Shown: positions 1 through 64,000 of the stretch, in pieces
Numbering within the stretch: the stretch's first letter is position 1
How the letters are laid out: every line of letters starts with the position of its first letter
Notes under the pieces: generated by a model
What the model was told of the DNA's origin: nothing
Databases searched by the model: none
Seen by the model: the letters and a program-made list of their open reading frames with translations, nothing else
Assembly (NCBI GenBank): GCA_014584575.1
Contig: JACTMP010000063.1
Span: 1 to 64,000, forward strand
Source: Chloroflexota bacterium
GTDB lineage: Bacteria > Chloroflexota > Anaerolineae > Promineifilales > Promineifilaceae
Reading direction: 5' to 3'
Length of the DNA stretch: 64,000 nt
Position numbers and translations under genes: made by a program

Positions 1-46
1 TGGAGATGCTGGTCTGCTGCCAGTGGTCAGCCAGGCTTAGACAAAA

Positions 47-466
47 GTGGGCTATTTTAGCCGCTTGGCGTATCTGTTTTTAAGGTGCAAAAGTCGTGAT
101 ATTAACTCCACAATTTACCGATGGGAGGGAACAACGGCTGGTTTTGTATGGTACCAGGATATTCCGACAAAAGGCGCAAGCCATTGGCAGTTTTTCACCA
201 TTGGCAACGAAGCCTATCTGTCAGTTACCTATGGTCGTGGCGATAGCGGCTATATTCAGGATTCCAAAATCTACCGTTGGAATGGCACCTACTTCGTCGA
301 AACACAGGCTTTTCCTACTAAAGGCGGGCAGGGTATGGCATTTTTTACTATTGACAGTCAACCTTACCTGGCTGTGGCTAATGGGCGGAGTAGTGGTAGT
401 AATTGGTCTGTAGACTCTCATATCTACCGGGCGGCGTTAGATGGTACGCTTGCTTTTGCCCCATAA
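47..466 (+). CDS. EPTP/EAR-like beta-propeller repeat protein, short or fragmentary
   Basis: Six-frame ORF with a GTG start right after an in-frame TAG. An internal ~47 aa repeat (S-x-IYRW-x-G-x-F ... PTKG ... FFTI ... YL-V-x-G) is seen about 2.5 times. I recognise this pattern as EPTP/EAR repeats. No signal peptide. Confidence 0.35.
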   Translation: MGYFSRLAYLFLRCKSRDINSTIYRWEGTTAGFVWYQDIPTKGASHWQFFTIGNEAYLSVTYGRGDSGYIQDSKIYRWNGTYFVETQAFPTKGGQGMAFFTIDSQPYLAVANGRSSGSNWSVDSHIYRAALDGTLAFAP

Positions 467-490
467 CCTTTGCCTGATGGAGGATAAACC

Positions 491-1165
491 ATGAATCGTG
501 ATACGACACTCCTTGTTCAGTCGTGGCAGAAAAACGCCTGGTTGGCCCTGGTGGGGGCGTTATTGGTCTTGAGTTCGGCGTCCTGGGTGCAAGCCGGCGG
601 TGGGTACAACATCGCTTGGTGGACGGTAGACGGCGGCGGTGGCAGCAGCAGCGGCCCCACCTATAGCGTCAGCGGCACGGTGGGCCAGCCGGAGGCCGGC
701 CCGGCGATGAGCAGCAGTTCCTACACTTTTTTCGGGGGCTTTTGGAGTTTGCTAGCCACCCCAACTTCACCCCCACCGTGGGCAGGAAAAGTTTACCTGC
801 CACTTACTGTCAAACCAGTCCCGTGTTTTAACGATGGAGAGGAGCGTAATCCCAACAACTCCACCACAGAAGCAAACACAAACGGGCTGCTTTGCGATGA
901 CGGCACGTATACCGGTAGATTTGATGACCAAAACGACTATTACGCCCTGCGCATGGGTACGACTGGTCTCATTGATATCAGCCTTGCCGGGTATACTGGC
1001 CCTGACGTTCAAATTTTGCTCTATTATGAGGGCGAACAGGTGGGGCAAGGGTATACACCCGATTATCGCATCAGTTATACCGGCCCCACCGGGCTGTATT
1101 ACATTCGGGTATTTATACCAGCGGCCAATAACGCCAGTTATTCGTTGCACGTGAATTTCCCGTGA
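491..1165 (+). CDS. secreted protein: signal peptide, conserved GQP/GFW N-terminal module, YLPLTVK motif, C-terminal PPC (pre-peptidase C-terminal) domain
   Basis: N-terminal hydrophobic signal (LALVGALLVLSSASWVQA). The C-terminal 90 aa (DDQNDYYALRM...GLYYIRV...YSLHV) match the PPC domain pattern from memory. Shares the module YSVSGTVGQP...YTFFGGFW and a YLP motif with the ORF at 35210..35500. Confidence 0.55.
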   Translation: MNRDTTLLVQSWQKNAWLALVGALLVLSSASWVQAGGGYNIAWWTVDGGGGSSSGPTYSVSGTVGQPEAGPAMSSSSYTFFGGFWSLLATPTSPPPWAGKVYLPLTVKPVPCFNDGEERNPNNSTTEANTNGLLCDDGTYTGRFDDQNDYYALRMGTTGLIDISLAGYTGPDVQILLYYEGEQVGQGYTPDYRISYTGPTGLYYIRVFIPAANNASYSLHVNFP

Positions 1166-1260
1166 TGATGGTAATCTGTAGGGGCAAGGCGGCTGGACAA
1201 GATATCAAGACCGCATCCCGTTTCTAGCTGCCTCGCTCCTACGGTTTCTTTGTGGGCGTT

Positions 1261-1464
1261 TTAGGACAGCCCCACCACTTTGCCTGTTTCCAGGTCAACG
1301 TCAATCTCGTAATACACCGGCCGAATCGGTAGTCCCGGCATCGTATTCACCGCCCCCAGCAGCGGGTAGAGAATATCTGCCGTGAGTCTGGCGGTAAAAT
1401 CACCCAATTTCATGGGAAAATTATACCTGTTGCCTGCCGCCTGGGTCATGTTAAAATGCTGCAT
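1261..1464 (-). CDS. hypothetical small protein
   Basis: ORF only; no recognisable motif. Confidence 0.2.
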   Translation of the reverse strand: MQHFNMTQAAGNRYNFPMKLGDFTARLTADILYPLLGAVNTMPGLPIRPVYYEIDVDLETGKVVGLS

Positions 1465-1487
1465 GTAGGGAATCCCCGGAGGAAAAC

Positions 1488-1682
1488 ATGATTAAGCTCA
1501 AGGAACTAAACGTTCAATATATTACCAATGAATCCGGTGAACGCAGCGGCGTCATTCTTTCCATTGAGGATTTTGAAGCCTTATTGGAAGATTTGGAAGA
1601 CATGGCGCTCGTCGTCGAGCGCCAGCATGAACCAACCATTTCCCATGCAGAACTGAAAGCCGAACTATACCTGACAAGGTGA
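1488..1682 (+). CDS. Phd/YefM-type antitoxin-like protein (orphan)
   Basis: 64 aa. The pattern GVILSIEDFEALLEDLEDMALVVERQHEPTISHAELKAEL is typical of type II antitoxins. No toxin ORF follows; the next gene is holB. Confidence 0.45.
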   Translation: MIKLKELNVQYITNESGERSGVILSIEDFEALLEDLEDMALVVERQHEPTISHAELKAELYLTR

Positions 1683-1710
1683 CAAGGTGACATCTGACAA
1701 GGTGACAAAA
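1670..1710. repeat. tandem 8-mer array (A)GGTGACA x4 overlapping the stop of the antitoxin-like ORF
   Basis: ggtgacaaggtgacatctgacaaggtgacaaaa read directly. Confidence 0.8.
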
Positions 1711-1870
1711 ATGTCAGATTATGACCTTCGAAAAGACGCCTATCGCAATTAATAGCCCCTCTGGCTACGGCCGTTCTCCAGACCGTGCCACCCCTCTCGA
1801 AGAGGGGAGGACGACGGCCGTCGCCTAATCTCACTGGCGCCCTTGTTTGTTCCTGAAGAGTAATCGGATA

Positions 1871-1900
1871 ATTACCCAATTGCCCAATTACCCAATAAAA
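1871..1900. repeat. tandem heptamer array CCCAATT(A/G) upstream of holB
   Basis: aattacccaattgcccaattacccaat read directly. Confidence 0.7.
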
Positions 1901-1907
1901 TACCGCC

Positions 1908-2927
1908 ATGACGGATTGGCAAAACGTGATTGGGCATGGGTGGGCGGTGCAAATGCTGCGGCAGAGTCTGGCAAACGGCCGTAACGGACACGCCTACCTC
2001 ATCACCGGCCCCGACCAGGTGGGCAAGACCACGCTGGCCCGCGCCCTGGCCCAGGCGCTCAACTGCACTGGTGAGGCGGATGGCTCGTGTGGCCCCGGCC
2101 ATCTGTGCCGCGCCTGCGCCCTCATCGCCAATGACCGGTACCCCGACGTGCGTCTGGTAGAGCCAGAGGTCAGCGGCCGGGGCAAACTGACCCTGAAAAT
2201 TGAGACCATCCGCCAGTTACAGCAAGAGTTGAACCTGTCGGCGTATGAAGCCCGCACCAAAGTGGCTATCCTCAAGCGGTTTGACGCCGCCACCATTGGC
2301 GCTTCCAACGCCTTCCTCAAAACGCTGGAAGAGCCGCCGCCCCGCGTGGTGCTCATTCTCACGGCTACGGATGCTGACACTTTGCTGCCCACTATCTCCT
2401 CGCGCTGCCGCACGTTGAATTTACGGCCGTTAGCCACCGAACTGATCGAACAAAGCCTGACTACCCGCTGGCGTGTAGACGACGACACGGCCCATCTGCT
2501 GGCGCATCTGGCTGACGGCCGTCTTGGTTGGGCGGTACGGGCGGCGCAAGAGTCGGCCATTTTAGAGGAGCGGGCAGCGCATCTGGCGCAGTTGCAGGAG
2601 GCATTGGCGGGCAGCCGGGTGCGCCGTTTTCAACTGGCCGACAAACTGGCGAACAAACCGGAAGCCGCCCCCGCCGTGTTGCAGACGTGGGTGAGTTGGT
2701 GGCGGGATGTGAATTTGCTGGCGCAAAGTGGGGGAACGGGTATGGCCGCGCTGACCAACATTGACCAGCTAGACGCCATGCGCCAGACTGCCAGCCGTGT
2801 GCCGGACACGGCCGTACTCGCCAGCCTCAAACAAACCACCCTGGCCCTCTGGCAACTGGAGCATAATGCCAACGGCCGTCTCGTCCTGGAAAACCTGTTT
2901 CTCACCTATCCCTATCTGACGATGTGA
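1908..2927 (+). CDS. holB: DNA polymerase III subunit delta-prime
   Basis: 339 aa. Degenerate Walker A (GPDQVGKTT), zinc-module cysteines (CTGEADGSCGPGHLCRAC), the LKTLEEPPP box and SRC motif (TISSRCRTL). Confidence 0.85.
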   Translation: MTDWQNVIGHGWAVQMLRQSLANGRNGHAYLITGPDQVGKTTLARALAQALNCTGEADGSCGPGHLCRACALIANDRYPDVRLVEPEVSGRGKLTLKIETIRQLQQELNLSAYEARTKVAILKRFDAATIGASNAFLKTLEEPPPRVVLILTATDADTLLPTISSRCRTLNLRPLATELIEQSLTTRWRVDDDTAHLLAHLADGRLGWAVRAAQESAILEERAAHLAQLQEALAGSRVRRFQLADKLANKPEAAPAVLQTWVSWWRDVNLLAQSGGTGMAALTNIDQLDAMRQTASRVPDTAVLASLKQTTLALWQLEHNANGRLVLENLFLTYPYLTM

Positions 2928-2993
2928 TTGGTAATCGGTAATCCGTAATCGGGCTTCGGCTAACGGTTTACGGATAACGGCTCACGGATAACG
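2928..2993. repeat. tandem heptamer arrays (GGTAATC x3 then CGGATAAC-type) immediately after the holB stop
   Basis: ggtaatcggtaatccgtaatcgggcttcggctaacggtttacggataacggctcacggataacg. Confidence 0.8.
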
Positions 2994-3059
2994 AATACAA
3001 CCACCACCCCCCATTCCCGTATACCTCTGCGTAGCAATTGCTGGTAAAATGACGACATC

Positions 3060-3776
3060 ATGTTAGCTGAAGCACTGCCCACGATATTTACCTGGTACAA
3101 CCTGCCCTTCACCATCATGCTGGTTTTGTGTGGCCTGTTGGCCGTGTTCCAGTTGGTGGGCTTGGGCGGGGATGGCGACTCCGACCTGGACGCTGACTTT
3201 GACGCCGACATTGATGCCGATGTTGACCTCGACTTCGACGCCGATGCCGATCTGGATGCCGACATTGACGCCGATGCCGACCTGGATGTAGATGGCGGCC
3301 TCGATTTCTTGTCTGTGCTGGCCTTTGTGGGGGTGGGCAAAGCGCCGCTGATGGTGGTATTGGTGGTGCTGCTGGGCAGCATGGCCATCATCGGCTGGAC
3401 GCTGAACAGTCTGTTGGAGGCGGTATTGGGCAGCTATCCGGCCTGGGGGCTTCTGCTGGTTTTGCCCCTTTCCTTCCTCATCGGCGGCCTCATTTCGTCC
3501 CGCGTGGCTCGTGTGATTGGTCGCGCGCTGCCCTCGATTAGCAGTACGGCTACCAGCGCCGCCGGGCTGGTGGGGCGGCGTGGCGCGGTTATCAGCCCGC
3601 GCCTGGATAGCCGGTATGGCCTGGTGCGCGTGCGCGACCAGGGCGGCACCCTGATCAACGTCTTTGCCATTACCGCCGGCGAGGAGCCAATTGACGGTAA
3701 GTCAGAAGTGGTGCTGGTTGAGTATGACGCGGCCAACAGACGGTACACGGCCGTGCCCATTGACAAAAAAGTGTAA
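3060..3776 (+). CDS. NfeD-like / YqiJ-like OB-fold membrane protein with acidic D-A-D repeat loop
   Basis: N-terminal TM segment, a (DADxDADxD)n acidic tract, two more TM segments, and a C-terminal OB-fold-like soluble domain ([22 protein letters not shown]...EVVLVEYD). Sits directly upstream of the flotillin gene, the conserved yqiJ-yqiK arrangement. Confidence 0.6.
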
Positions 3777-3818
3777 CGCGATTTTCCAAATCGCCTTACC
3801 ATTGCACAGGAGGAACCC

Positions 3819-5867
3819 ATGCAAGTCTTAATTCCCGCAGCCATCATTTTCGTGGCCGTCTTATTTAGCATCATCCTTTTTTTCTCCATCTTGCGCGCCT
3901 ACGTCAAGACGCCGCCCAACCGCGCTTTTGTGCGCACCGGCGGACTGGGCCGCGCTACGGCTCCGCCCAAAGTGGTGATGAACGGCGGTGGCTGGGTCTT
4001 CCGCACCATCCACGAGCTGACCTGGGTAGATCTGAACACCATGGCCATTGAAATTGAGCGCACCGGCGAAACGGCGCTACTCACCATTGATCCGCAATAT
4101 GCGGACATCAAAGTCATCTTTTACATCAAAGTAAGCCCCACCATTGATGGCATCGTAGACGCCGCCCGCACCATTGGCGGCAAGCAGGTGGATGGGGCGA
4201 CGGTAAAAGAATTGGTGGACGCCAAACTGGATGGCGCACTGCGTGACGTAGCCGCCACCTTCACCCTGATGAGCCTGCATCAAGAGCGGGAAAAGTTTAT
4301 TGAGGAAGTGCAAAACCGGCTCAAAGCCGACCTGGAAGAAAACGGCCTGACGCTGGAATCCGTCTCCATTCTCACCCTGCGCGCCGCCCGGCAAGGCTCC
4401 TTTGGTACCGATGACGTGTTCGGCGCGCAGGTAGCCCGCGCCAATGCTCAGGTGATCCAGCAGGCGTTGCGCGAGCGTAACGACATTGAGCGCAAGATGG
4501 AAATTGAGATTAAAAAGAAAGACACGGAAACGGCCCGCCAGCGGTTAGACCTGGATCGTGACCTGGCGCTGGCGGCGGCCACGCAGGAACGAGAAGTGCG
4601 CACCATGCAGGCCACGGAAAAAGCCAATGCCGACCACAAGGTTTTTGAAGAAGAGCAAAAATCTGAGCAGGCGCGCATTGGCAAGGAGCGGGCGGTGGCG
4701 CTCTTGGAAATGCAAAAAGCGCAAGAACTGGCTGTGCAAAATGAGCGCAACCAGCAAGAGGTCATGTCTACGGAACTGACCCGCCGCCAGACGTTGGAAC
4801 TGGCCGATCAGCAGCGGCAAATTGCCCTGGTGCAGGCGGAACAGGAACGGGAGCGGGCCGAGCAAGAACGGCTGCTGGTTTTAGCCAAACGCGAGGAAGC
4901 CGCCCAGGCGGTGAAAACGGTGGAAGCCACCGAGCAGGCGCAGCGCGAGGCCAAGATCAGCCTGATTCAGGCGGAGCGCGAAGCGCAAAAGGCAATGATT
5001 GAGCAGAAGAATCGCATTGAGTTGGAGGCGCTGCGTAAACAACGCGAGGCGGAAGCCGAAGCGGCGGCGCTGAAAGCGCGTGCGGCAGCCGAAGCGGAAG
5101 CGGCCCTGAAGCAGGCGGAAACCATTCGCACCCAGGCGCAGGCGGAGACGGAAGCAGAAAAACTGCGCGCCGAAGCCGCCAAAGCGCAGGCGTCGGCGGT
5201 GGGTCTGGCCGATGCGGATGTGCTGCGGGCCAAGGCGGAAGCGGCCATGCAGGAAGCGGAAGCGGTGAAGGCCAAAGCGGTGGCCGAAGCGGAAGGGGCC
5301 AAAGCCAAAGCGGAGGCGCTGGCTGCCTACGATGGTGTGGCGCAGCGGGTAGAAATTTTGAAATTGCAGCTAGACGCGCAGGTACAAATTGAGGTGGCGA
5401 AGGCCGATGCGCTGGCCAAGGCGCTGGCTTCGATGAATATCAAGATGATTGGCGACCCCAATGCGGCGGCCTCGCTGCTGCGCATGGTGACGCTGTCTGA
5501 CGGCCTGGGCGAGGTGCTGAAAAATACGCCCGCGCCGGTGTTGGAAGCGGGGCAGCAGTTGCTCAACCGGATCACGGGCAACGCCGGTGATGACAGCCTG
5601 ACCAGAGCGGCGAATGGCGCGCATACCGGTACGGATGTGGCCGAACTGGCGCTGTTGGTGCCGGAGATTGTGCAAAAGGTGGAGCAGCATTTGAATGTGA
5701 ATAAGCTCAAAGGTAAGTCTGTGGGCGAGGTGTTGCAATTGCTGAGCGAAAAAGCGCCGGATGATGAAGTGGTGCAAAAGGCGCAAACGGCCGTGTCCCA
5801 ACTCCCCATTATCCGTGACCTGCCGTTTGATGATTTTTATTTAAGGGCGACAGCCGGTAATCTGTAA
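3819..5867 (+). CDS. flotillin-like SPFH/band-7 protein (YqiK-type) with long Ala/Glu-rich coiled coil
   Basis: N-terminal TM segment, SPFH domain (residues ~30-200), then ~250 aa of EAEAAALKARAAAEAEAA-type coiled coil. Operon position after the NfeD-like gene. Confidence 0.85.
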   Translation: MQVLIPAAIIFVAVLFSIILFFSILRAYVKTPPNRAFVRTGGLGRATAPPKVVMNGGGWVFRTIHELTWVDLNTMAIEIERTGETALLTIDPQYADIKVIFYIKVSPTIDGIVDAARTIGGKQVDGATVKELVDAKLDGALRDVAATFTLMSLHQEREKFIEEVQNRLKADLEENGLTLESVSILTLRAARQGSFGTDDVFGAQVARANAQVIQQALRERNDIERKMEIEIKKKDTETARQRLDLDRDLALAAATQEREVRTMQATEKANADHKVFEEEQKSEQARIGKERAVALLEMQKAQELAVQNERNQQEVMSTELTRRQTLELADQQRQIALVQAEQERERAEQERLLVLAKREEAAQAVKTVEATEQAQREAKISLIQAEREAQKAMIEQKNRIELEALRKQREAEAEAAALKARAAAEAEAALKQAETIRTQAQAETEAEKLRAEAAKAQASAVGLADADVLRAKAEAAMQEAEAVKAKAVAEAEGAKAKAEALAAYDGVAQRVEILKLQLDAQVQIEVAKADALAKALASMNIKMIGDPNAAASLLRMVTLSDGLGEVLKNTPAPVLEAGQQLLNRITGNAGDDSLTRAANGAHTGTDVAELALLVPEIVQKVEQHLNVNKLKGKSVGEVLQLLSEKAPDDEVVQKAQTAVSQLPIIRDLPFDDFYLRATAGNL

Positions 5868-7085: not shown

Positions 7086-8066
7086 AAAACTTCCAGGAGA
7101 AAGATGATGAATGTGATTGTAGAAACTCTTGATTTGCGGAAACAGTATAACCCGCCGGAAGGGCCGGAGGCGGTGAAGGGGGTTTCCTTTTCCATCCGGC
7201 AGGGGGAGATTTTTAGCCTGTTAGGGCCAAATGGCGCGGGTAAAAGCACGACCATTGCCATGCTCAGTGGGCTGCTGGCCCCCACCGGCGGCGAGGCGGT
7301 GATTGATGGTCATGCCATCACCCGCGACGCGAAAGCGGTGAAGCAGGTGATCGGTGTGGTACCGCAAGAGATCGCCCTGTATGAGGCCATCAGCGCCCGC
7401 GAAAATTTGCAGTTTTGGGGGCGGATGTATGGGCTGCGGGGCGAGGAATTGAAGCAAAGGGTCACGGCCGTGCTCGATATTGCCGGTTTGTCTGACAGAG
7501 CCAATGACAAGGTATCCACCTTTTCCGGCGGCATGAAGCGGCGCATCAACATCGCTGTGGGGCTGCTGCACAATCCCAAAGTGCTGTACATGGATGAACC
7601 AACGGTGGGCATTGATCCGCAAAGCCGCCGCCGTATTCTGGACACGGTGCAAGAGCTAAACCGGCAGGGGCTGACGGTGCTGTATACCACCCACTACATG
7701 GAAGAAGCCGAGGAACTCAGCCACCGCATCGGCATTATTGATCATGGCGAGTTGATTGCCCTGGGTACACTGGCGGAACTGACGGACATGGTAGGGCATT
7801 ACGATACCATCCGACTGGACGTGGGGCTGCCCGATGGCGCCAACGGCGAGCTGCGGCAGGCGTTAGCTTTGCTGCCCGGTATTCACCAGGCGGATGGGGA
7901 CGCCGACGGCCGTGTCATCCTGCAAACCGAAGACGCCAATGCCATCTTGCCCACCGTCATCCAGCACATTGCCGGGGAGGGGCTGCCCATTCGCAAGCTG
8001 GAAATTCAAGAGCCGAACCTGGAAGCGGTATTCCTGCATTTGACGGGGCGGGCGTTAAGAGACTGA
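7077..8066 (+). CDS. ABC transporter ATP-binding protein (ABC-2/DrrA-like)
   Basis: Walker A (GPNGAGKST), signature (FSGGMKRR), Walker B (LYMDEPT). True start is probably ATGATGAATGTG near 7104, after an AGGAGA RBS, because 7077-7085 is repeat sequence. Confidence 0.85.
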   Translation: MTQKTSRRKMMNVIVETLDLRKQYNPPEGPEAVKGVSFSIRQGEIFSLLGPNGAGKSTTIAMLSGLLAPTGGEAVIDGHAITRDAKAVKQVIGVVPQEIALYEAISARENLQFWGRMYGLRGEELKQRVTAVLDIAGLSDRANDKVSTFSGGMKRRINIAVGLLHNPKVLYMDEPTVGIDPQSRRRILDTVQELNRQGLTVLYTTHYMEEAEELSHRIGIIDHGELIALGTLAELTDMVGHYDTIRLDVGLPDGANGELRQALALLPGIHQADGDADGRVILQTEDANAILPTVIQHIAGEGLPIRKLEIQEPNLEAVFLHLTGRALRD

Positions 8067-8140
8067 CAATTGGCAATTATCAATTGAAAATTGCGCGTGG
8101 TTCATAAGGCGAGATTTGTCCTTTACAAATTAGCTGCAAT

Positions 8141-8228
8141 TGTCATTCCGAGCGTAGTCTTCGGAGCGAGGAATCCCGCTCCTGCACCAGAGGTAGGGAT
8201 TCCCCCTCGAAGACTCGTCGGAATGACA
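8141..8228. repeat. MITE-like 88 nt palindromic element, copy 1
   Basis: TGTCATTCCGAGCG..GTCTTCGGAGCGAGGAATCC ... GATTCC..CTCGAAGACTCGTCGGAATGACA. Terminal inverted repeats with internal complementarity. A second copy lies at 35513-35600. Confidence 0.7.
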
Positions 8229-8273
8229 CGGTGACGTGGAATATGTAAAAATATGCCGGTAGTTTTCTGAACC

Positions 8274-9581
8274 ATGCCGAAAATTATCAATTTTGGAGAG
8301 GTAGTGATGCGAATTTTAGCGATTGCCTGGAAAGATTTGAGTATTACGTTTCGGGATCGGAATGCGCTGTTTTTGATGATTCTGGCGCCGTTGGTGTTGT
8401 CGTTCATTATTGGCGCATCGTTTGGTAACTTTTTGATCGGCGGCAGCAGCGTGCCCTTTGACCAGATTCCGGTGCTGGTAGTGAATGACGATGCCGGCGA
8501 CATGGGGCAGCAGTTTGTGGCTACTATGCAGGCAGGCGAACTGGCCGACCTGCTGCTGGTGACGCAGATGGATGACCTGGACGAGGCGCGGGCCATTGTG
8601 CAGCAGGGGGACGCGCGGGCAGCGGTGCATATTCCGGCGGGGTTTTCTACGGCCGTGCGCGGCGAAACCCCGGCCACATCCCCCACCATCATCGCCTTTT
8701 ACGCCGATCCCACCGCCACCCTTACGCCAAACATTGTGCGCGGCATTGTGGTGCGCATCACCAACAGCTTTAACACCGGCGCCATTGGGGCGCAGGTGAC
8801 GGTAGAGCAGTTGATGGGGCAAACGGCCGTGTTGGGGCCGGCATTAGCGCAGTTAGGGGCCGTGCTGGAGGAACAAATTGGGTCGCAGATGGAGCAGGGT
8901 AACGGCCGTGCCGCCAACGGCCGTGCCGCGATCACATTACGCCAGCTTACGGTGGGTGAAATTGAAGAACCGTTGGAAATCAGCCCCTTTGCCTTTTTTG
9001 CGCCCAGCATGGGCATCCTTTTCCTCATGTTTGCCATGATGGACAGCACCCGCTCCATCCTGGAAGAAGAGCGAGAAGGCACGCTGCCCCGGCTGCTGAC
9101 CACGCCCATTGCGCATAGCGAATTGTTGTTGGGCAAAGTGGGCGGCGTTTTTGTGGCGGGCATTATCCAGTTTGTGGTCTTTGTGGTGGCCTCGCGGTTG
9201 TTGTTTCAGCTAAATTGGGGCCATTCGGCGTCCGGGTTGGCGCTGATGGTGCTGGCGATTGTGCTGGCCTACACCGGCCTGGGGCTGCTTATTGCCGCCT
9301 TTGCCAGAGACGTGAACCAGGCCGCCATTTTCGGTTCGGTCATTTCGCTGGTATTTGCGGCGTTGGGGGGCAATTTTGTCAACGCGCAGAATTTCCCGCC
9401 CTGGCTGGATCAGTTGAGCAAGATCACCATCAACCGCTGGGGCATTGATGGCCTGACGGCGCTGACCATTTACGACGGCGGCCTGAACGACGTTTTATTA
9501 CCGGCGGCCATTTTATTGAGCATTGGCGACCTGTTTTTCCTGCTGGCGCTGTGGCAGTTTGGCCGGCGGATAAAGAGGTAA
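8274..9581 (+). CDS. ABC-2 family transporter permease
   Basis: N-terminal TM segment, a large extracytoplasmic loop, then a C-terminal six-TM ABC-2 bundle. Follows the ABC ATPase. Likely start is the ATG at 8307 (MRILAIAWKDL). Confidence 0.7.
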   Translation: MPKIINFGEVVMRILAIAWKDLSITFRDRNALFLMILAPLVLSFIIGASFGNFLIGGSSVPFDQIPVLVVNDDAGDMGQQFVATMQAGELADLLLVTQMDDLDEARAIVQQGDARAAVHIPAGFSTAVRGETPATSPTIIAFYADPTATLTPNIVRGIVVRITNSFNTGAIGAQVTVEQLMGQTAVLGPALAQLGAVLEEQIGSQMEQGNGRAANGRAAITLRQLTVGEIEEPLEISPFAFFAPSMGILFLMFAMMDSTRSILEEEREGTLPRLLTTPIAHSELLLGKVGGVFVAGIIQFVVFVVASRLLFQLNWGHSASGLALMVLAIVLAYTGLGLLIAAFARDVNQAAIFGSVISLVFAALGGNFVNAQNFPPWLDQLSKITINRWGIDGLTALTIYDGGLNDVLLPAAILLSIGDLFFLLALWQFGRRIKR

Positions 9582-9622
9582 CTGGGTAATTATCCAATCA
9601 CGTGTCTTCTCAATATCTCGTG

Positions 9623-9668
9623 GAGGAGTGCGCATCCTCAGATGCGCATCTGAGGATGCGCACTCCTC
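9623..9668. repeat. 46 nt perfect palindrome (CATCCTCAGATGC family) between the two permease genes
   Basis: gaggagtgcgcatcctcagatgcgcatctgaggatgcgcactcctc, verified as its own reverse complement. Confidence 0.85.
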
Positions 9669-9725
9669 TCACCCCCATTTATTGAGATGATACCAATTAC
9701 CCAATTACATTCTTGAGGATAAACC

Positions 9726-10961
9726 ATGTTACGCAATACATTCGACATGATGATTCATTACCTGCGGTTGACGTATGGGGAGCGGTCTACATTGATTTTT
9801 CAGATTGCCATGCCGCTGTTGTTTACCTTTCTGGTGGGGCAGGCGACCGGCGGTTTTGGCGGCGGCGGCACTATCAGCAGCACGGCCGTTACCTGGACGG
9901 TGGCGGTGGTGAATGAGGACGGGGGCGCGTATAGCACGCTCCTGGTGGACGGGTTGCAGGCCGACCCGACGTTGGTGGTGGCGCCGGTGGCTGATGAGGA
10001 CACGGCCGTGACGCAAGTCGAAGACGGCACGGTTACGGCGGCGCTGGTCATTCCGGCGGCGTTCAGCCAGCAGTTAGCTGCCGGGCAGGGGGCGAACCTG
10101 GATTTCTACAGCGACCCGGCCAATACGCGCCAGGTGCAGCCGGTGCAAGAGGCGGTCAACGCCGCCATCAGCCAGTTGCAGGGGGCGCTGACGGCAGCGG
10201 CCATTTCCGCAGGCACGGCGGCCGAATTGGGTCTGTTTGACCAGGGCGTTGAACCGGTAGATTACCGGCTGGCCGCCGTACAATTGGCGCAAACAGCCTG
10301 GCAGCATCCGCCCACGGCCGTGCAAATCAACGAAGACGAACTGGTCATCAGCGTCACCGACATCATCCCCAACGGCATTAACCAATCCTCGCCGGGCATG
10401 ATGGCTATGTTTGCCACTTTCGGCATGTTGGGCGGGGCGGCCGTGCTGATTCAGGAGCGGCAGTGGGGCACACTGCGGCGGCTGGCCGTCATGCCCATTC
10501 GCAAAGGCAGCATTATTGGCGGCAAACTGATGGGCATTGTCACCGCCGGTGTCCTGCAAATGGTCATTCTCATTATCGCCGGGGCGCTGCTGTTTCGTGT
10601 GGCCTGGGGCAATTCCCCGGCGGCGCTGGCGCTGATGGTGGTCAGTTTTGCCCTGGCGATGTCTGGTCTGGGTATGATGATGGCGGCGTTGGTGAAGACG
10701 ATTGCCCAGGCCAATGCGCTGGGCACGGTGCTGGTGTTGTCCATGTCCGCCTTGGGTGGCGCCTGGTGGCCGCTGGAGATTGTGCCGGACTGGCTGCAAA
10801 CGGTGGGCAAACTATCACCAATTTACTGGGCGATGAGCGGCTTTCAGGACATTATCACGCGGGGGTGGGGGGTGACGGCCGTGCTGCCGGAAGTGCTGGT
10901 GTTGATGGGCTTTACGGCCGTGTTCCTGGTCATCGGTCTCTGGCGCTTCAAATACGAGTGA
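9726..10961 (+). CDS. ABC-2 family transporter permease (second)
   Basis: Same architecture as 8274..9581: N-terminal TM, loop, C-terminal TM bundle. Confidence 0.7.
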   Translation: MLRNTFDMMIHYLRLTYGERSTLIFQIAMPLLFTFLVGQATGGFGGGGTISSTAVTWTVAVVNEDGGAYSTLLVDGLQADPTLVVAPVADEDTAVTQVEDGTVTAALVIPAAFSQQLAAGQGANLDFYSDPANTRQVQPVQEAVNAAISQLQGALTAAAISAGTAAELGLFDQGVEPVDYRLAAVQLAQTAWQHPPTAVQINEDELVISVTDIIPNGINQSSPGMMAMFATFGMLGGAAVLIQERQWGTLRRLAVMPIRKGSIIGGKLMGIVTAGVLQMVILIIAGALLFRVAWGNSPAALALMVVSFALAMSGLGMMMAALVKTIAQANALGTVLVLSMSALGGAWWPLEIVPDWLQTVGKLSPIYWAMSGFQDIITRGWGVTAVLPEVLVLMGFTAVFLVIGLWRFKYE

Positions 10962-10968
10962 TGGGTGA

Positions 10969-11002
10969 GCCGTGACGGCCGTAGCGCGCTACGGCCGTCA
11001 CG
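10969..11002. terminator. 34 nt perfect palindrome built from two ACGGCCGT octamers, directly after the permease stop
   Basis: ccgtgacggccgtagcgcgctacggccgtcacgg. Confidence 0.5.
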
Positions 11003-11198
11003 GCTTACGAATTACTCATGGCACGGCCGTGAAACTGTGTTATACTCCTGCCTGTCCTCCGCAAGGAGGATAGTTTTATTATCAACATGGTTTGGAAATT
11101 ACCAATTGGATGCCCGCCCAGGTTGGCCGGGCATTTTTTGTGGCAGCAGGATGGCTCTTACGTAATGGGACGGGCTGGCTGTGAGTCCGCAAAGGGCA

Positions 11199-11256
11199 GA
11201 GATTCGAGATTCGAGATTGGTAAATCTCCAATCTCGAATCTCCAATCTCCAATCTC
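11199..11256. repeat. inverted heptamer arrays GAGATTC/GAGATTG and reverse complement (hairpin) upstream of the helicase start
   Basis: gagattcgagattcgagattggtaaatctccaatctcgaatctccaatctccaatctc. Confidence 0.8.
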
Positions 11257-11272
11257 AACACGTAGGAGCAAC

Positions 11273-12928: not shown

Positions 12929-12981
12929 TCAGGGTGGGGTGGGCAGCAATTATACCGGCTCACGCTGGTGGGCTGACCGGC

Positions 12982-13986
12982 TCATTTAGCCGGTTGGCGA
13001 ACCCATTGTAATATCTCTTGCAGAGCGGCAAAGCTGAGGCGTTCCATCTTTTCCAGGCGGCGTGGCTCTTGCAGGCTTTGGTACAGGATGGTGTGTTCCT
13101 GTTCATCACCACCCATGGCGTGGTCGGCCAGCATGACTAAAGCGGCGGGGCGGGGGGCGATATTCTTCACGTAGCGACTGAGCAAATAGGTGTAGGGGTT
13201 GTTGTTGTGGAAGATGTGGGCAGGCGTGAAACCAGCCTGTGCCCGGCCAATGGCAATGACACCCTGAATCTGAGGAACATGGCTGGCCCACAAGAGCGCC
13301 AACCCGGCGGCTAACGGCTGACCAATGATCACCGGCGGGCTGGGGAGCATTTGAATGAGCATCCGCAAGTCACTGTTCAGGTCATCCGGTTTGAGGCGGT
13401 TCTGACTGCTGGCATGTAGCAGATAGCGCAGGGGGTCCAGACCAAACACTTCATAACCTGCCTGCGCCAGCTTGGTGCAAACCACGTCATCGGTTTTGCC
13501 AAAGCTGCCATAGGAGGCCAGGTAAAGCAACGTGGGGGGGGGCACTTCGGTGGTTATGGCCGGGTATTGGTAACTTTCCATCATGGAGCCAGGGCCAAGG
13601 GGCCAGAGGTTGACACGGCCGTAGGCCGAATCTGGCGTTCCCAACAGCCCGATGTTTATCTTGCCAAATCGTTCCTTTGCCCACTCACGGATGGCGTGCA
13701 GGTCGTGGTCAAACCGTTCATCCCCCATCGAGCCTTCGCTTTCTCCGGTGCCCCGCAGGTCAAAAACCAGATGGGCCACCTTGCGCTGCGCCCCAAAATA
13801 CTGAACTTCTTGCCGGGCGCAGGTGATGACGCTGCTTTTTGTCAGTGGGAATTTGGGCACCCACACCCGCAGAGATGTCAGGTCTTCGTCAGGGATGTCT
13901 GGCGGACGTACCAGAATACAATCCAGATACAAATCATCATCGGTCAAAATACCAAAGGGTTCTTCAATATATGGTTGAGAAGTCAT
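12982..13986 (-). CDS. hypothetical protein, alpha/beta-hydrolase-fold-like with a non-canonical nucleophile region
   Basis: The lipase/esterase-like topology DLRGTGESEG...INIGLLGTPDSAYG lacks a clean GxSxG. Assignment is weak. Confidence 0.3.
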   Translation of the reverse strand: MTSQPYIEEPFGILTDDDLYLDCILVRPPDIPDEDLTSLRVWVPKFPLTKSSVITCARQEVQYFGAQRKVAHLVFDLRGTGESEGSMGDERFDHDLHAIREWAKERFGKINIGLLGTPDSAYGRVNLWPLGPGSMMESYQYPAITTEVPPPTLLYLASYGSFGKTDDVVCTKLAQAGYEVFGLDPLRYLLHASSQNRLKPDDLNSDLRMLIQMLPSPPVIIGQPLAAGLALLWASHVPQIQGVIAIGRAQAGFTPAHIFHNNNPYTYLLSRYVKNIAPRPAALVMLADHAMGGDEQEHTILYQSLQEPRRLEKMERLSFAALQEILQWVRQPAK

Positions 13987-14060
13987 GGATGTGTTGCCTA
14001 TGGCGTGTAACGCATCGTGTCTGCGGTCAGGATTACACGATAGGCCATATTACCCGCCAT

Positions 14061-15593: not shown

Positions 15594-15613
15594 TTTTTCA
15601 CCCTATCACTATT

Positions 15614-59434: not shown

Positions 59435-60880
59435 GTGGATCCCTGGTCAATCATATCAATCATTTTCACTGTGTACGTTATTGTGGTGGCGATTTTTGTC
59501 ATCTCTGAAAATCGGTCGCCACAATCAACCTTTGCCTGGTTATTTTTGTTTGTCACTTTCCCGTTGTTGGGGGTGCTGATTTACATCTTTTTTGGGCGTG
59601 GCGCCCATACCTTCAGCCAGGAGCGGGACATTGCCCGCACCAAACTGCTGGATGAATTTGTGGCTGACCTGGGGGTGCTGGCGCAGCGGCAGGAAGAATA
59701 TATCCAGCGCATTGCTCAGGAACGGCCGTCTTCATACAAAAAACGGCTACTGCGTCTGGTGCAGCAAAGCTCCAGTTCCGTCCTCACCGGCATGAATGAG
59801 GTAGAGATTTTGCAGGACGCGACCCAAAAATACCCGCGTCTGCTGGCAGACATCAAAGCGGCAGAGCATCACGTTCACCTCAATTACTACATCTGGACGG
59901 AGGATGATTTCACCCTTCAGATAAAAGAGGCGCTCATTGAACGCGCCAAAGCGGGCGTGGAAGTGCGCTGCCTGTTTGATGCGTCTGGTGGGGCCATGAG
60001 CAAACAGTATTTACAGGATTTGCGAGACGCCGGGGTGCAAATTCACCCCTATCTGGAATTCCGTTCGCTGAAAATGCTGCACACCGCCAACTATCGCAGT
60101 CACCGCAAGATTGCCGTGATTGACGGCCGTATCGGCTACGTTGGCGGCCTCAATCTGGACAAGGAGCAAATTGAGCCACCGGCATTCGACCGCTGGCGCG
60201 ACACCCATTTGCGCATGATCGGCGAAGCGGCGCATGGATTACAGGCCAGTTTTGCCATAAGCTGGTACACCACCACCCAGGAAAAAATCACCGGCCCCTC
60301 GTATTACCCCCCGGTGGAAGTGAATACCTTCCTGCCGGTGCAAATCACCCAGGGCGGCCCAGACTCCCAATGGAAAGCGATCCGGCAGGTCTACTTCCTG
60401 ATGATTACTTCCGCCGAAGACCGGATTTATCTGCAATCACCCTTTTTCATCCCCGACGAAAGCATTTTGGAAGCGCTCAAAGCGGCGGCATTGGCCGGGG
60501 TGGACGTGAACCTCATGTTCACGCCGCGTGGCTCTACCTATCAGGTGCCGTACCGCGCTGCCCATACCTATTTCCGCGAAGTGGTGGAAGCGGGCGCAAA
60601 AGTGTATTTGTATGAGGGGGGCTATTTCCATCCCAAGACACTCAACATTGATAGCGCCGTTGTTTCCATTGGCACGGCCAACATGGACATCCGCAGCTTT
60701 AATCTGGACTACGAAACCAACGCCATCATCTATGACGAAGGCAAATCTAAAGAGATGGAAGCGCAGTTCATGGAAGATTTGAAAAGCTGCAAGCAGTGGA
60801 CGCTGGCGGAATACAAGAGCTATTCGGCAGGGCACCGGTTTGTGGATTCCGTTTACCGGCTGGCGTCGCCGCTGTTATAG
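59435..60880 (+). CDS. cls: cardiolipin synthase (PLD superfamily, two HKD motifs)
   Basis: GTG start after a GGAGG RBS. Two N-terminal TM helices. HKD motifs HRKIAVIDGRIGYVGGLN and HPKTLNIDSAVVSIGTANMD. Confidence 0.85.
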   Translation: MDPWSIISIIFTVYVIVVAIFVISENRSPQSTFAWLFLFVTFPLLGVLIYIFFGRGAHTFSQERDIARTKLLDEFVADLGVLAQRQEEYIQRIAQERPSSYKKRLLRLVQQSSSSVLTGMNEVEILQDATQKYPRLLADIKAAEHHVHLNYYIWTEDDFTLQIKEALIERAKAGVEVRCLFDASGGAMSKQYLQDLRDAGVQIHPYLEFRSLKMLHTANYRSHRKIAVIDGRIGYVGGLNLDKEQIEPPAFDRWRDTHLRMIGEAAHGLQASFAISWYTTTQEKITGPSYYPPVEVNTFLPVQITQGGPDSQWKAIRQVYFLMITSAEDRIYLQSPFFIPDESILEALKAAALAGVDVNLMFTPRGSTYQVPYRAAHTYFREVVEAGAKVYLYEGGYFHPKTLNIDSAVVSIGTANMDIRSFNLDYETNAIIYDEGKSKEMEAQFMEDLKSCKQWTLAEYKSYSAGHRFVDSVYRLASPLL

Positions 60881-61018
60881 GGTGATGATTGCGTAACGGC
60901 TGACACGGCCGTGTGCCCCAGGTAATCGTACACGGCCGTCTAGGTTCTCTCTGGCATCACCTCATTGTCAACATATGTCGCCGGTGAAATGAGACGCTGC
61001 TGGCATACCTGCCATCGT

Positions 61019-61047
61019 TTTACAATTCACGGCACTTGACATATAAT
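61019..61047 (+). promoter_or_regulatory. near-consensus sigma70-type promoter: TTTACA -17 nt- TATAAT, about 43 nt upstream of the EAD-like gene
   Basis: ttttacaattcacggcacttgacatataat read directly. AT-rich and conspicuous in a 60% GC background. Confidence 0.45.
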
Positions 61048-61089
61048 TTCGCCAGCTTTAGCTGTATTGTCATTCACTAAGAGAGTTTC

Positions 61090-62418
61090 ATGTCTGACCA
61101 GGTTACGCCCCTACCCAACGGGGAACAACCCGTTGATACCAACAAACTATTGCGGGTACTCATTGAACTGTTCAGCGAACAGGAACTACGCGATCTCTGT
61201 TTTGAGCTACGTCTGGATTATGAAAACCTGGAAGGAAGCGCCAAAAAAGACAAGGCGCGTGAACTCATCAACTACTTTTTCCGTCGCCGCCGCCTCAACG
61301 TTCTGATCACTGTTTTTCGGGAGCATCGCCCGCATGTTACCCTGGAAGAGCTTCTATTAAAGGAGGGCGAGATAGACTCTTCGACCACGATTGTGGGGCT
61401 GCCCACCACACTACCTTCAGCCCCCAAAGATATGTCCAATACCATGCTGGTGAGCAAAAGTTTTGTTACCCTGCTGCGTTTGCTCACTCGCCCCGACATG
61501 CGCGCCGCTGTTGTTGCCTTTCAGACTGATTTCCAGGCTGCCTCCAGCCAGATTGACCAGATGAATGATTTTAAGCTGGCGCATGATCTCTTTCAGGAGT
61601 TAGAAAACCGCTACTTTCTCATCCAGAATGATGAGCGCCGCCTGCCTGCCGATGACATGGCCTGGGATAGCATTGCCATCAATGAACCAGAGTTGCAGGG
61701 CAAAATCAGCGATTTGCGCGTGGTGACGCAGCGCCCCACCTTTGCCACGAACGAAGCGCGCTGGATGGAGCAGTTGGAAAAAGTAAGCGATAGCATTCGC
61801 GTTGGCGTGGAACAGTTTGATCTGGATGAACTCAAGCGGGGTACCAACCTGCTGTATCGCGTCCTCAACCGCACTCCATCGCGCATCAATGCCCAACTGG
61901 TTTCCACCGCGACGGCGCTGCGCCTGGACGCGCTGGAACAAGCCATGCAGACCATCAACACCAATCTTTCTGCCAGCGATTTGAAGCTGGACAGCGTGGT
62001 GGAGGAGATCGCCAGTGGCGTAGCCGCGTTATCGGGGCTGGATGAACGGCTGAAGGTATTGGTGAAGGAGCATAACGCCTGGCAGGAGATAGATGATGAG
62101 CTGCGCCGGGTTGAAGCGGGGCTAAGCCAAAGCATTGATGAATTGGACGACGCCTGGTTTGATCTGGAGCCGATGGCGCGTGACCTGACGGCGGGGCAAA
62201 GTGTGGAGTGGGCCACAGAGCTAAATGATGTAGTAGATAAGCTGGATGAGGCGCTCAAGGAAAAGGTGATAGTGACGGTGCGCCGTCTCTTCCGCCGTTT
62301 CCAGAGCCAGGTGCGGCGCCGTTTCCGGCAGGTGGATTTAGAGTTGTTAACCTTGTGTCAGGATTTGCAGCGGGTGGGCGAATCGCTGGATTTGTTGTTG
62401 AGGCAGTTTGAAAAATGA
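61090..62418 (+). CDS. protein with N-terminal death-like EAD-type (effector-associated) domain and long helical C-terminal region
   Basis: The N-terminus LLRVLIELFSEQELRDLCFELRLDYENLEGSAKKDKARELINYFFRRRRLNVLITVFREHRP matches my memory of the EAD1-like pattern (L..L...FS..EL..LCF.L.vDYENL.G..K..KAREL..Y..RR.RL..L). The rest is predicted helical/coiled-coil. The stop overlaps the next start (ATGA). Confidence 0.4.
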   Translation: MSDQVTPLPNGEQPVDTNKLLRVLIELFSEQELRDLCFELRLDYENLEGSAKKDKARELINYFFRRRRLNVLITVFREHRPHVTLEELLLKEGEIDSSTTIVGLPTTLPSAPKDMSNTMLVSKSFVTLLRLLTRPDMRAAVVAFQTDFQAASSQIDQMNDFKLAHDLFQELENRYFLIQNDERRLPADDMAWDSIAINEPELQGKISDLRVVTQRPTFATNEARWMEQLEKVSDSIRVGVEQFDLDELKRGTNLLYRVLNRTPSRINAQLVSTATALRLDALEQAMQTINTNLSASDLKLDSVVEEIASGVAALSGLDERLKVLVKEHNAWQEIDDELRRVEAGLSQSIDELDDAWFDLEPMARDLTAGQSVEWATELNDVVDKLDEALKEKVIVTVRRLFRRFQSQVRRRFRQVDLELLTLCQDLQRVGESLDLLLRQFEK

Positions 62419-64000
62419 GCGACTTCCAAGAGCATTCCCTTTCGGAGGATGAAATCATCCCTTTTATGTCTTTTGTTTCGTTTCGGGATACCCACCGGGA
62501 CTTGTTGAAACAGCGCCGCGAAGAGAAGAAGGAGCATGGAGAGGAAACACCAGACTTCTGGACGGCCGTAGACGAGTTCCTGAAACGGGGCCGCGCCGCT
62601 GGCGCATTTCTGGACGAGGACAGCGACCGGGAAGCGGCGCAAAATCTGCTCGATTACTGGGAGACACAACTCTTTCACGCCGGTCGGGATATTCCCGACA
62701 TGATCCTGGCTGAATTTAACGCCAGCCTCCAGCCAGAAATCCCCGATGATCGCTGCCCCTACGTGGGGCTGAACGCCTTTGACATCAACAACCAGCATCA
62801 GTTTTACGGCCGTGACCAACTCATCGGCGAACTGCTCAATCAAGTGCTCGTCAGCCGGTTGGTCACCACCATTGGCCCCTCCGGCAGCGGCAAGTCGTCG
62901 GTGGTATTAGCCGGGCTGCTGCCCCGCCTCAAGGCAGGGGAACTGCCTGGCAGCGCCTTGTGGAACTACTTTCCGGTCATTGTGCCCGGTTCTGCCCCCC
63001 TCACCGCCCTGGCCCGCCTGCTCCAGCCCGCAGATACCAACACGCCCACCTGGATAGTGGAAAACACCGAAAAACTGCGTGATGATACCAACCACCTCAC
63101 CACCCTGGTGGAAAATTTTAGCCAGGAAGCCTCCGTGCTTGTCATTGACCAGTTCGAAGAGACCTTCACCCTTTGCCACGACGAAGAAGAGCGCAACGCT
63201 TTTCTGGAAAACTTGCTAAACCTGGTTCGCTCTCGTGATACACGCCATGTGGTCATCTTAACCATGCGGGTAGATTACGAGAGTTACCTGACCAAAGCAC
63301 CCCTGTTTCACTCATTGGTCGAGCAGGGACAGGTGCGCGTCAGCGCCATGAACACCGCCGAATTGCACGAGGCTATCGAAAAACCGGCGGCGGCCGTCGG
63401 GCTAAAATTTGAAGAAGGGTTGGTGGACGCCGTTGTCCGCGAGATTGTTGGTGAACCGGCAGCGCTGCCGCTGCTGCAATTTGCCCTGTTGCAATTGTGG
63501 GATAACCGCGAGCGCAACCGCGTCACCTGGGAAACCTACCGCCGGTTGGGTGGCGTCATGCAGGCATTGGCCAACACCGCCAACCAAATTTACGATAATT
63601 TGCTGCCCGAAGACCAGGTAACGGCGCGGCGCATCCTGCTGCGCCTGGTGCGCCCCAGCGAAGGGCTGGAATTCACCCGCCGCCGTGTGCCCGTCCAGCA
63701 GATTTACCAGGCTGGCGAAGCCCACGACCGGGTAGACCGTGTCCTGGAAAAATTGATACAGTCACGGCTGGTGCGCCGCACCAGTGGGCACACCGAAGAA
63801 GATGATCAAATTGAAGTAGCCCACGAAGCATTGGTGCGTAACTGGCCGCGCCTGGTGGACTGGCTGGATGAGGAACGTATTCGCCTGCGGCACCGCCTGC
63901 GCTTCACCGACCAGGCTGAACAGTGGGACGCGCTGAACCGGGACGAGGGGGCGCTGCTGCGCGGCGCTCTCTTGCAGGAGGCGCTGCAATATGAAGACCT
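62415..64000 (+). CDS. nSTAND-type P-loop NTPase (CPYxGL-FxxxDxxxFFGR ... GPSGSGKSS), 5' part; continues past the window end
   Basis: Not in the ORF track because there is no stop inside the window. Translation from the ATG at 62415: ...DDRCPYVGLNAFDINNQHQFYGRDQLIGELLNQVLVSRLVTTIGPSGSGKSSVVLAGLLPRL..., then Walker-B-like LVIDQFEE and a helical domain. Family assignment is from memory of cyanobacterial/Chloroflexi WD40/TPR-fused NTPases. Confidence 0.55.
   Translation, partial: MSDFQEHSLSEDEIIPFMSFVSFRDTHRDLLKQRREEKKEHGEETPDFWTAVDEFLKRGRAAGAFLDEDSDREAAQNLLDYWETQLFHAGRDIPDMILAEFNASLQPEIPDDRCPYVGLNAFDINNQHQFYGRDQLIGELLNQVLVSRLVTTIGPSGSGKSSVVLAGLLPRLKAGELPGSALWNYFPVIVPGSAPLTALARLLQPADTNTPTWIVENTEKLRDDTNHLTTLVENFSQEASVLVIDQFEETFTLCHDEEERNAFLENLLNLVRSRDTRHVVILTMRVDYESYLTKAPLFHSLVEQGQVRVSAMNTAELHEAIEKPAAAVGLKFEEGLVDAVVREIVGEPAALPLLQFALLQLWDNRERNRVTWETYRRLGGVMQALANTANQIYDNLLPEDQVTARRILLRLVRPSEGLEFTRRRVPVQQIYQAGEAHDRVDRVLEKLIQSRLVRRTSGHTEEDDQIEVAHEALVRNWPRLVDWLDEERIRLRHRLRFTDQAEQWDALNRDEGALLRGALLQEALQYED

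Follow-up and report, generated by a model that had tools for sequence, protein, structure and literature searches.

The first 64,000 bases of contig JACTMP010000063.1 from an uncultured Chloroflexota bacterium (57.7% GC; this whole stretch is called the window below) raise the question of why a single eight-base palindrome, ACGGCCGT, is written into this DNA over and over again. A preliminary description, made from the sequence alone, had called the octamer hyper-abundant and estimated about 150 copies, roughly one per 400 bp. The hyper-abundance was borne out; the exact figure was not, since counting gave 140 copies, i.e. 2188 per Mb or about one per 450 bases. In 100 dinucleotide-preserving shuffles of the window the octamer occurred 1.46 times on average and at most 5 times, and Markov models of orders 0–5 with the motif masked predicted 1.3–1.75 copies, which gives an observed/expected ratio of 85–105. 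The description had proposed a Markov model of order 3 or higher as a test of its claim, and the enrichment survived it with 4.75 copies expected at order 3 without masking. Unmasked models of orders 5–6 predicted 54–121 copies, but this is circular, as almost all of the 6- and 7-mers behind these figures derive from ACGGCCGT itself. The runner-up among the palindromic octamers had 4 copies. The hexamer CGGCCG occurred 194 times, and 140 of these copies lay in the A...T context that makes the octamer.

Genes were mapped simply as the longest open reading frames (ORFs), most of which are backed by Pfam matches and which cover 92% of the window. Within ORFs 126 copies of the octamer were found (90%), and 14 in the spacers (10% of the copies in 8% of the sequence). 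As had been claimed, all three coding frames are used as well as intergenic DNA: 68 copies are read as ACG GCC GTn (frame 0, Thr-Ala-Val), 41 as nAC GGC CGT (frame 1, Tyr, His, Asn or Asp followed by Gly-Arg) and 17 as nnA CGG CCG Tnn (frame 2, x-Arg-Pro followed by Leu, Ser or Phe). Outside the motif, ACG makes up 28% of the Thr codons and GCC 51% of the Ala codons. From such codon usage 10 of the 69 Thr-Ala-Val tripeptides in the window would be expected to be written as ACGGCCGT, but 67 were; likewise, the octamer encoded 39 of 44 tripeptides of the frame 1 type, where codon usage predicts 2, and of the 19 compatible x-Arg-Pro-x peptides it encoded 16, where 0.2 are predicted. Furthermore, Thr-Ala-Val is the commonest tripeptide of the window proteins, with 69 occurrences versus 9.7 expected, and its five permutations occur only 6–12 times each.

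How single sites are made was followed in a codon alignment of the phosphoglycerate mutase gene (iPGM) from 47 related genomes (coordinates in the table). In one column all sequences keep Asp-Gly-Arg, and 18 genomes write it as the motif; among the octamer-poor sequences GAC-GGC is never combined with CGT, mostly with CGC. In a second column, the octamer-poor sequences of the Promineifilum type mostly read R-T-A-P-S and the motif-bearing ones T-A-V-S (CCN to GTN, proline to valine). A third copy is young: T-E-A-V became A-T-A-V (glutamate to threonine) in the window and three relatives only (L001, L002 and L003). In a fourth column, Glu-Arg-Asp/Glu was changed to Glu-Arg-Pro (aspartate or glutamate to proline) in five genomes. 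The fate of sites was determined by aligning 11 kb of the window (27.5–39.1 kb) to four relatives with 63–85% nucleotide identity. Motif sites were fully conserved in 86–97% of cases, compared to 23–36% of GC-matched octamers and 33–60% of the one-off variants of the octamer, and the excess was also found within each reading frame. Once present, an octamer site persists across species. The octamer is introduced and maintained by a force on the DNA and not by codon or peptide bias. Codon choice, protein change and site conservation, together with the core structure and the motif turnover described below, all support the earlier claim of selection at the DNA level.

The closest genomes by iPGM (at most 93% amino-acid identity) are uncultured metagenome-assembled genomes (MAGs) labelled Ardenticatenaceae, Anaerolineae, Chloroflexota or Promineifilaceae; the named relatives, Candidatus Leptofilum and Candidatus Leptovillus, belong to the family Promineifilaceae in the class Ardenticatenia, and the species of the window itself was matched only by short metagenome contigs. 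The lineage is an uncultured Promineifilaceae/Ardenticatenaceae-type Chloroflexota. Of the related sequences, 40 at species level carry ACGGCCGT at 774–3577 per Mb, with observed/expected ratios of 48–159 and GC contents of 46–62%. The enrichment is lacking in Promineifilum genomes, Caldilinea-like genomes and all outgroups examined. In a single-gene tree, which is weak evidence on this point, lineages without the octamer are interspersed with carriers, and this tree suggests that the octamer may have been gained and lost within the group. The description had also stated that the octamer is usually extended to a ten-base palindrome; this proved wrong, as only 45 of 140 copies in the window (32%) are so extended versus about 25% by chance. 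The bases next to the octamer rather differ by lineage, C...G being preferred in the group of the window and A...T (up to 94%) in others, so that the favoured ten-mer is CACGGCCGTG in the former, and AACGGCCGTT is dominant among more distant relatives.

To define the word itself, 1200 sites from 39 sequences were pooled. One-base variants at the outer positions were found with observed/expected ratios of 4.7 (G), 5.0 (T) and 1.4 (C), and inner variants with 0.3–1.2, except for C2-to-T with 2.5; the baselines in motif-free relatives were 0.7–2.7 for outer variants and 1.3–1.6 for C2-to-T. Since deviations of the outer bases are enriched and inner ones are not, CGGCCG is the hard core of the octamer. 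One relative (L026, CAYPHY010000004.1) has the core alone: 106 bare CGGCCG in 21.6 kb (observed/expected about 9) show no flank-base preference, and only 8 copies are full octamers. Another (L047, CAYQYJ010000018.1) has no ACGGCCGT but 14 copies of TGCCGGCA versus about 1 expected, located at 7878–20786 and often extended as ATGCCGGCAT; like the octamer of the window, TGCCGGCA consists of a GC palindrome of six bases enclosed by a complementary A/T pair. CGGCCG seems depleted in three sequences of the iPGM scan that are more distant (L036, L050 and L052), with 3, 1 and 0 copies versus 8.5, 12 and 4.4 expected; the counts are small, and an EagI-type restriction system, present now or in the past, would be expected to cause such depletion. 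CGGCCG is the site of EagI/XmaIII-type enzymes, and the core is a classical palindrome of type II restriction-modification. In contrast to restriction targets, which are normally avoided, the octamer is enriched about 100-fold and needs the additional A and T.

The octamer is also abundant in viral contigs. Scanning these for pairs of octamers gave about 20 loci at host-like density, some of which encode a terminase, portal or head protease with octamers inside the gene (IMG/VR; L167, L090, L151 and L152); one viral terminase gene of 48% GC holds 5 octamers in 1.5 kb. A further locus, L100, has genes for ParA, an FtsK-like translocase and a transglycosylase and seems to be conjugative or plasmid-like, not viral. 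A metagenome scan for triple octamers returned mostly short contigs, one third of which consisted of degenerate tandem copies of a unit of about 12 nt, (TGTACACGGCCG)n, with at most one octamer per 55–100 nt (L277, L255, L276, L252, L236, L242 and about 25 short contigs); many of these contigs stem from one sample group (Ga0056108, Ga0056133-35, Ga0209259 and Ga0209459). This satellite-like repeat is unrelated to the dispersed octamer.

The DNA around the sites has a polar composition. On each strand G is abundant and C scarce in the roughly 40 nt that precede the octamer 5', and the 3' flank is the mirror image. At 4–6 nt the 5' flank has 41% G and 18.5% C, a GC skew of +0.38, which decreases to +0.31 (7–12 nt), +0.18 (13–21 nt), +0.12 (22–33 nt) and +0.06 (34–45 nt) and is about zero by 60–80 nt; A and T are unchanged, and the bootstrap standard deviation is about 0.01. 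GGGG, GGGA, GAGG and GGAG are enriched in the 5' flank. The skew was found in 36 of 36 genomes that have at least 10 sites, for each flank separately, at sites without a neighbour within 100 nt and, whatever the frame and the direction of the gene, at third codon positions taken by themselves. In the same genomes it was absent from the control sites GGCC, CCGG, GCGC, CGCG and TGGCCA, and at CGGCCG outside the octamer it was absent beyond 6 nt; neither CGGCCG nor GGCC had a flank skew in relatives and outgroups. The TGCCGGCA sites of L047 (n = 13) do show a G-to-C flank skew, the hexamer of L026 a weak one, and in viral or mobile contigs rich in the octamer (n = 278) it is nearly absent beyond 3 nt. 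Selection for hairpins or cruciforms was rejected as its cause: in-register complementarity of the flanks amounted to 3.47 pairs and to 3.41 pairs with swapped partner flanks, and folding energies were -12.10 kcal/mol versus -12.04 kcal/mol for chimeric flanks (p = 0.64). The polarity of the skew suggests that it stems either from a process directed along the strand or from a footprint that extends symmetrically to both sides of the octamer. The skew is a new feature and most likely the best route to something new.

A comparable element is known from cyanobacteria, where the highly iterated palindrome HIP1 (GCGATCGC; alternative forms GGGATCCC, CAGGCCTG and TCGATCGA) was discovered in 1995. 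HIP1 reaches 300–2700 copies per Mb with observed/expected ratios of 55–228, and octamers attain its frequency in very few genomes of bacteria (Elhai 2012). It is conserved above control palindromes, which was read as selection (Xu et al.), its placement has been claimed to be periodic over 10–90 kb, and it has been argued to be linked to methylation; a ratchet of methyl-directed repair, chromosome structure and a signal for uptake or recombination are debated as its function. The preliminary description had named HIP1 as the analogous case, and density, frames, conservation, core structure and turnover bear this out. Both words are GC-rich palindromic octamers with about 1–3 copies per kb and observed/expected ratios of tens to hundreds, both are found in every reading frame and in spacers, and both are conserved above controls with one-off variants in between. 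Each has a hexamer core in the style of a type II site with deviations mainly on the outer bases, lineage-specific palindromic extensions, other palindromes that replace it in some relatives, and patchy loss within its group. The octamer described here is, however, not HIP1 proper: it is found in Chloroflexota (class Ardenticatenia, Promineifilaceae-type) and not in cyanobacteria, its core is CGGCCG with an inner GGCC instead of CGATCG with an inner GATC, and its outer pair is A/T instead of G/C. A literature search retrieved no report of ACGGCCGT as a genomic element, of any HIP-like element in Chloroflexota or of an octamer as frequent as HIP1 outside cyanobacteria. Judged by these sequence features, ACGGCCGT is a counterpart, in a second phylum, of the still unexplained HIP1.

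At the level of sequence the octamer has every feature that marks a HIP and none of those that mark Chi or the REP (repetitive extragenic palindromic) and MITE (miniature inverted-repeat transposable element) types of repeat. We therefore consider ACGGCCGT to be a HIP-type highly iterated palindrome, a lineage-wide DNA word driven by a methylation-linked, sequence-specific activity, and put the probability of this reading at roughly 55%. The most likely mechanism would be that a chromosomally encoded activity reads the octamer. The best candidate for the reader would be an orphan methyltransferase for CGGCCG or ACGGCCGT, partnered with a step of repair, recombination or uptake that favours motif-bearing DNA. 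Such a step would turn near-matches to complete octamers and shield those already present, a ratchet as proposed for HIP1 by Elhai; sites are made by synonymous choice where the protein allows it and by amino-acid replacement where that is tolerated. The symmetric switch of the skew suggests that the activity may be strand-polar and start or end at the octamer. A more specific version is possible but rather unlikely: a still unknown strand-polar, sequence-specific DNA transaction for which the octamer would be the entry or nick point, which would drive the word to about 2 per kb, leave the footprint of about 40 nt and have switched its specificity between ACGGCCGT, CGGCCG and TGCCGGCA. A conceptual precedent for the conversion of near-matches is the very-short-patch repair by Dcm and Vsr of E. 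coli, in which repair converts near-matches into full methyltransferase sites (CCWGG). That system differs in its small enrichment compared to about 100-fold here, and CCWGG has no flanking GC skew.

If a methyltransferase reads the octamer, the question arises of where it is encoded. The SPPY methyltransferases of the window had been put forward as candidates, but this was not supported for any of the three. The first is encoded next to a CfrBI-type endonuclease in an octamer-free segment with a low GC content at third codon positions (GC3), and CCWWGG, the presumed target of the pair, is avoided in the window (17 copies versus 45–98 expected; CCTAGG 0, CCTTGG 2 and CCAAGG 3); for these reasons it is unlikely to be the cognate enzyme. 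CCWWGG is avoided in close relatives as well (tested in L001–L005 and L205) but not in L036. This avoidance suggests a long exposure to the CfrBI-type specificity, though the island looks recent. The other two are paralogues (28–31% identical), adjoining a convergent gene for a PLD-type protein of about 410 amino acids with a weak match to BfiI. This three-gene cassette (42091–46411) holds octamers at normal density, unlike the island of the first pair, and recurs in L205 (10001–14275) and L208 (10001–14430). It has more than 4800 homologues, many with about 60% identity or above. Homologues with 63–65% identity are found in contigs with 0–1 octamers, others in L205, a MAG rich in octamers (47 in 21 kb). 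The cassette appears to be a type IIS-style restriction-modification module transferred between phyla, and its association with a PLD nuclease, its unrelated contexts and its homologues in octamer-free contigs make the paralogues unlikely cognates.

Several results weigh against the reading as a methylation-linked HIP. All three methyltransferases of the window are part of ordinary restriction-modification cassettes, and searches of the window and of about 2.9 Mb of related DNA gave no cognate methyltransferase, no Vsr-like nuclease and no other reader; a HIP-type palindrome would be expected to come with a cognate orphan methyltransferase for its core wherever it is abundant. A search for C5-methyltransferases by tblastn with M.HaeIII (an approximate query) and a motif scan, in about 2.4 Mb and then 0.48 Mb, revealed none in loci of the clade; a single weak match was in a viral locus (L123) that is not octamer-rich. 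CGGCCG-specific N4-methylcytosine and 5-methylcytosine do occur in environmental MAGs according to the supplements of Nanomotif, in which ACGGCCGT is not among the motifs. The flank skew has no precedent, and its reading as a repair tract is unsupported, because the flanks of Dcm CCWGG (n = 306) and Dam GATC (n = 434) sites of E. coli lack a skew and HIP1, at 74 sites that all lie on two cyanobacterial plasmids, shows one at 1–3 nt only, compared to 4–40 nt in the chromosomal loci studied here. Deamination of exposed single strands fits poorly, as C is exchanged for G with A and T unchanged. Finally, phage structural genes with octamers at host density fit any host-wide force but also selection on the phage.

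The simplest of the rival explanations takes the octamer as a by-product of codon usage, base composition or a mobile repeat of the REP/MITE type. Third codon positions are GC-rich, and two small hairpin elements have octamers at their ends; however, Markov models with the motif masked predict fewer than 2 copies at every order up to 5, three frames and the spacers are used, codon usage predicts 10 of 69 Thr-Ala-Val sites and not 67, and the enrichment holds from 46 to 62% GC, so that an artefact of codon usage, amino-acid or base composition is ruled out by the masked models, frame counts and codon-usage expectations. A longer mobile repeat is ruled out as well because the flanks are not conserved in sequence past 1–2 bases: REP and MITE elements are longer and mainly intergenic, and here 90% of the copies lie inside ORFs, which make up 92% of the window, and only the two hairpin elements would qualify. 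With the Markov, frame, codon, flank, ORF and GC tests all against it, the by-product explanation is refuted and its probability practically negligible. Next, the octamer could be a hotspot of recombination, Chi-like but active in both orientations, through which recombinational repair would favour motif DNA. HIP1 was reported to act Chi-like in homology arms, and a 2016 Chi paper reports context dependence. In the Chi model the strand that carries Chi stays single-stranded 5' of the site, and a palindrome would then have a distinct 5' flank on each strand, as in the polarity of the skew. The known Chi sites, on the other hand, are asymmetric and co-oriented with replication, and ACGGCCGT, being its own reverse complement, cannot be oriented; further, Chi-dependent single-stranded tails extend over kilobases and not about 40 nt, the octamer is about 10 times denser than Chi in E. 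coli, and the window contains neither addAB nor recBCD genes. This explanation is very improbable.

An abundant nucleoid-associated or chromosome-organising protein with the octamer as its binding site would account for site conservation far above controls, from which Xu et al. in the case of HIP1 concluded selection and a role in chromosome structure. The skew would then be an extended two-fold symmetric footprint, which agrees with a flank preference that is two-fold symmetric, present at synonymous positions and seen in every genome with enough sites, and which has no site-specific hairpin complementarity and hence is a preference for composition and not for structure. Since local spacing matches random, 30–40 nt of skew per side are long for the footprint of a simple dimer and no candidate protein was found, we regard such a binding site as quite unlikely. 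The octamer could also be a signal for DNA uptake, preferred by competent cells and spread by molecular drive as the DNA uptake sequences (DUS) of Neisseria and the uptake signal sequences (USS) of Pasteurellaceae. About 2 copies per kb fall within the density range of DUS and USS, every frame of coding DNA is used and the proteome visibly affected, a restriction-modification island that is probably recent lacks the octamer, and the intergenic copies are preferentially paired as hairpins just past stop codons, which resembles inverted DUS pairs. Moreover, methylated HIP1 is reported to raise transformation of Synechococcus 7002 more than 100-fold, and HIP1 abundance to follow that of the uptake machinery. 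But ACGGCCGT is palindromic, unlike the uptake signals known so far, and its density in phage terminase and portal genes is host-like, which uptake would not predict except in the case of old prophages. The window has no competence genes, and the strand-polar skew of about 40 nt is not obviously explained. Uptake is an unlikely but serious rival to the methylation-linked HIP, which we favour.

The distribution of the octamer along the window and the features built from it are as follows. Local spacing within the 64 kb was neither regular nor clustered: the coefficient of variation was 1.00, as for a Poisson process, and 15 pairs lay at most 50 nt apart versus 14.4 expected. The octamer had been described as missing from the restriction-modification island at 17950–20283. 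The absence is real, but the size of the gap, at 2642 nt the greatest of the window, is unexceptional (chance P = 0.32); its length alone proves little because two comparable gaps (3755–5786 and 21848–24390) fall within ordinary genes. The absence from the pair fits a recent arrival. The ends of the window are octamer-poor and lower in GC as well, without any copy before 1767 and with only two past 60939; they hold ORFs at 47–466 and 491–1165, the latter without a Pfam match, and a gene for a protein with an EAD7 effector-associated domain (61090–62418). These ends (1–1766 and 61000–64000) may be further acquired segments. Most octamers of any gene, 14, are found in a gene for a BTAD/AAA/TPR regulator of about 68% GC (29697–33221), and most of these are common to all four close relatives.

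Intergenic copies tend to be paired: 8 of 14 have a neighbour at most 50 nt away, compared to 21 of 126 coding copies (Fisher p = 0.0017). A palindrome made of two copies had been noted at 10969–11002; it is real and even longer, with a perfect stem of 20 bp, and lies directly 3' of the stop codon of an ABC-2 permease ORF (9726–10961), followed by a third octamer at 11023. Two elements of about 65 nt share 85% identity across 54 nt and have the order octamer, C-run, loop, G-run and octamer, with the octamers as the base of the stem. They flank about 0.9 kb with small unannotated ORFs and may be terminators or a miniature mobile element. Scans of the window for tRNA genes and Rfam families gave no matches.

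Table. Octamer-related features and methyltransferase genes of the window, in order of position. GC3, GC content at third codon positions.
Feature	Position	Strand	Remarks
Perfect palindrome, 20-bp stem	10965-11008	+	octamers at 10975 and 10991; fold -42.1 kcal/mol, z = -8.6
Longest octamer-free stretch	17757-20390		holds the genes for the CfrBI-type endonuclease and the SPPY methyltransferase
CfrBI-type endonuclease	17950-19056	minus	GC3 0.41 vs about 0.7 elsewhere
SPPY methyltransferase, N4/N6 family	19066-20283	minus	GC3 0.58; paired with the CfrBI-type endonuclease
iPGM copy made by synonymous choice	27938-27945		GAC GGC CGT over invariant Asp-Gly-Arg
iPGM copy made by replacement	28126-28133		motif in 26 genomes at the same column
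Young iPGM copy	28621-28628		T-E-A-V to A-T-A-V
SPPY methyltransferase	43341-44954		paralogue of 44954-46411
SPPY methyltransferase	44954-46411		N-terminal MerR-type DNA-binding domain
Hairpin element, copy 1, about 65 nt	46435-46499	+	repeat family D1, inverted repeat I3
Hairpin element, copy 2	47386-47451	+	repeat family D1, inverted repeat I1; -37.2 kcal/mol, z = -3.35
Hairpin of an intergenic octamer pair	60905-60939	+	just past the stop of ORF 59435-60880; -23.6 kcal/mol, z = -3.0

An independent case in another phylum is a natural replicate for every hypothesis on HIPs. The group brings its own contrasts, in which about 40 species rich in the motif stand beside one relative that has only the hexamer, one that has another octamer and close relatives without any, and this makes a phyletic search for the genes involved feasible; the group includes Candidatus Leptofilum and Leptovillus, and since many related MAGs seem to have been assembled from long reads, methylation calls may be obtainable from reads that already exist. 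The octamer is also a strong marker for binning and, from its host-like density in viral contigs, a candidate marker to link phages and plasmids to their hosts. The polar flank skew is a new, measurable footprint that any mechanism must explain. Should the strand-polar transaction be true, these bacteria would have a system of genome maintenance or self-marking without a described counterpart, whose footprint was kept at least around TGCCGGCA and which is possibly the missing mechanism of HIPs.

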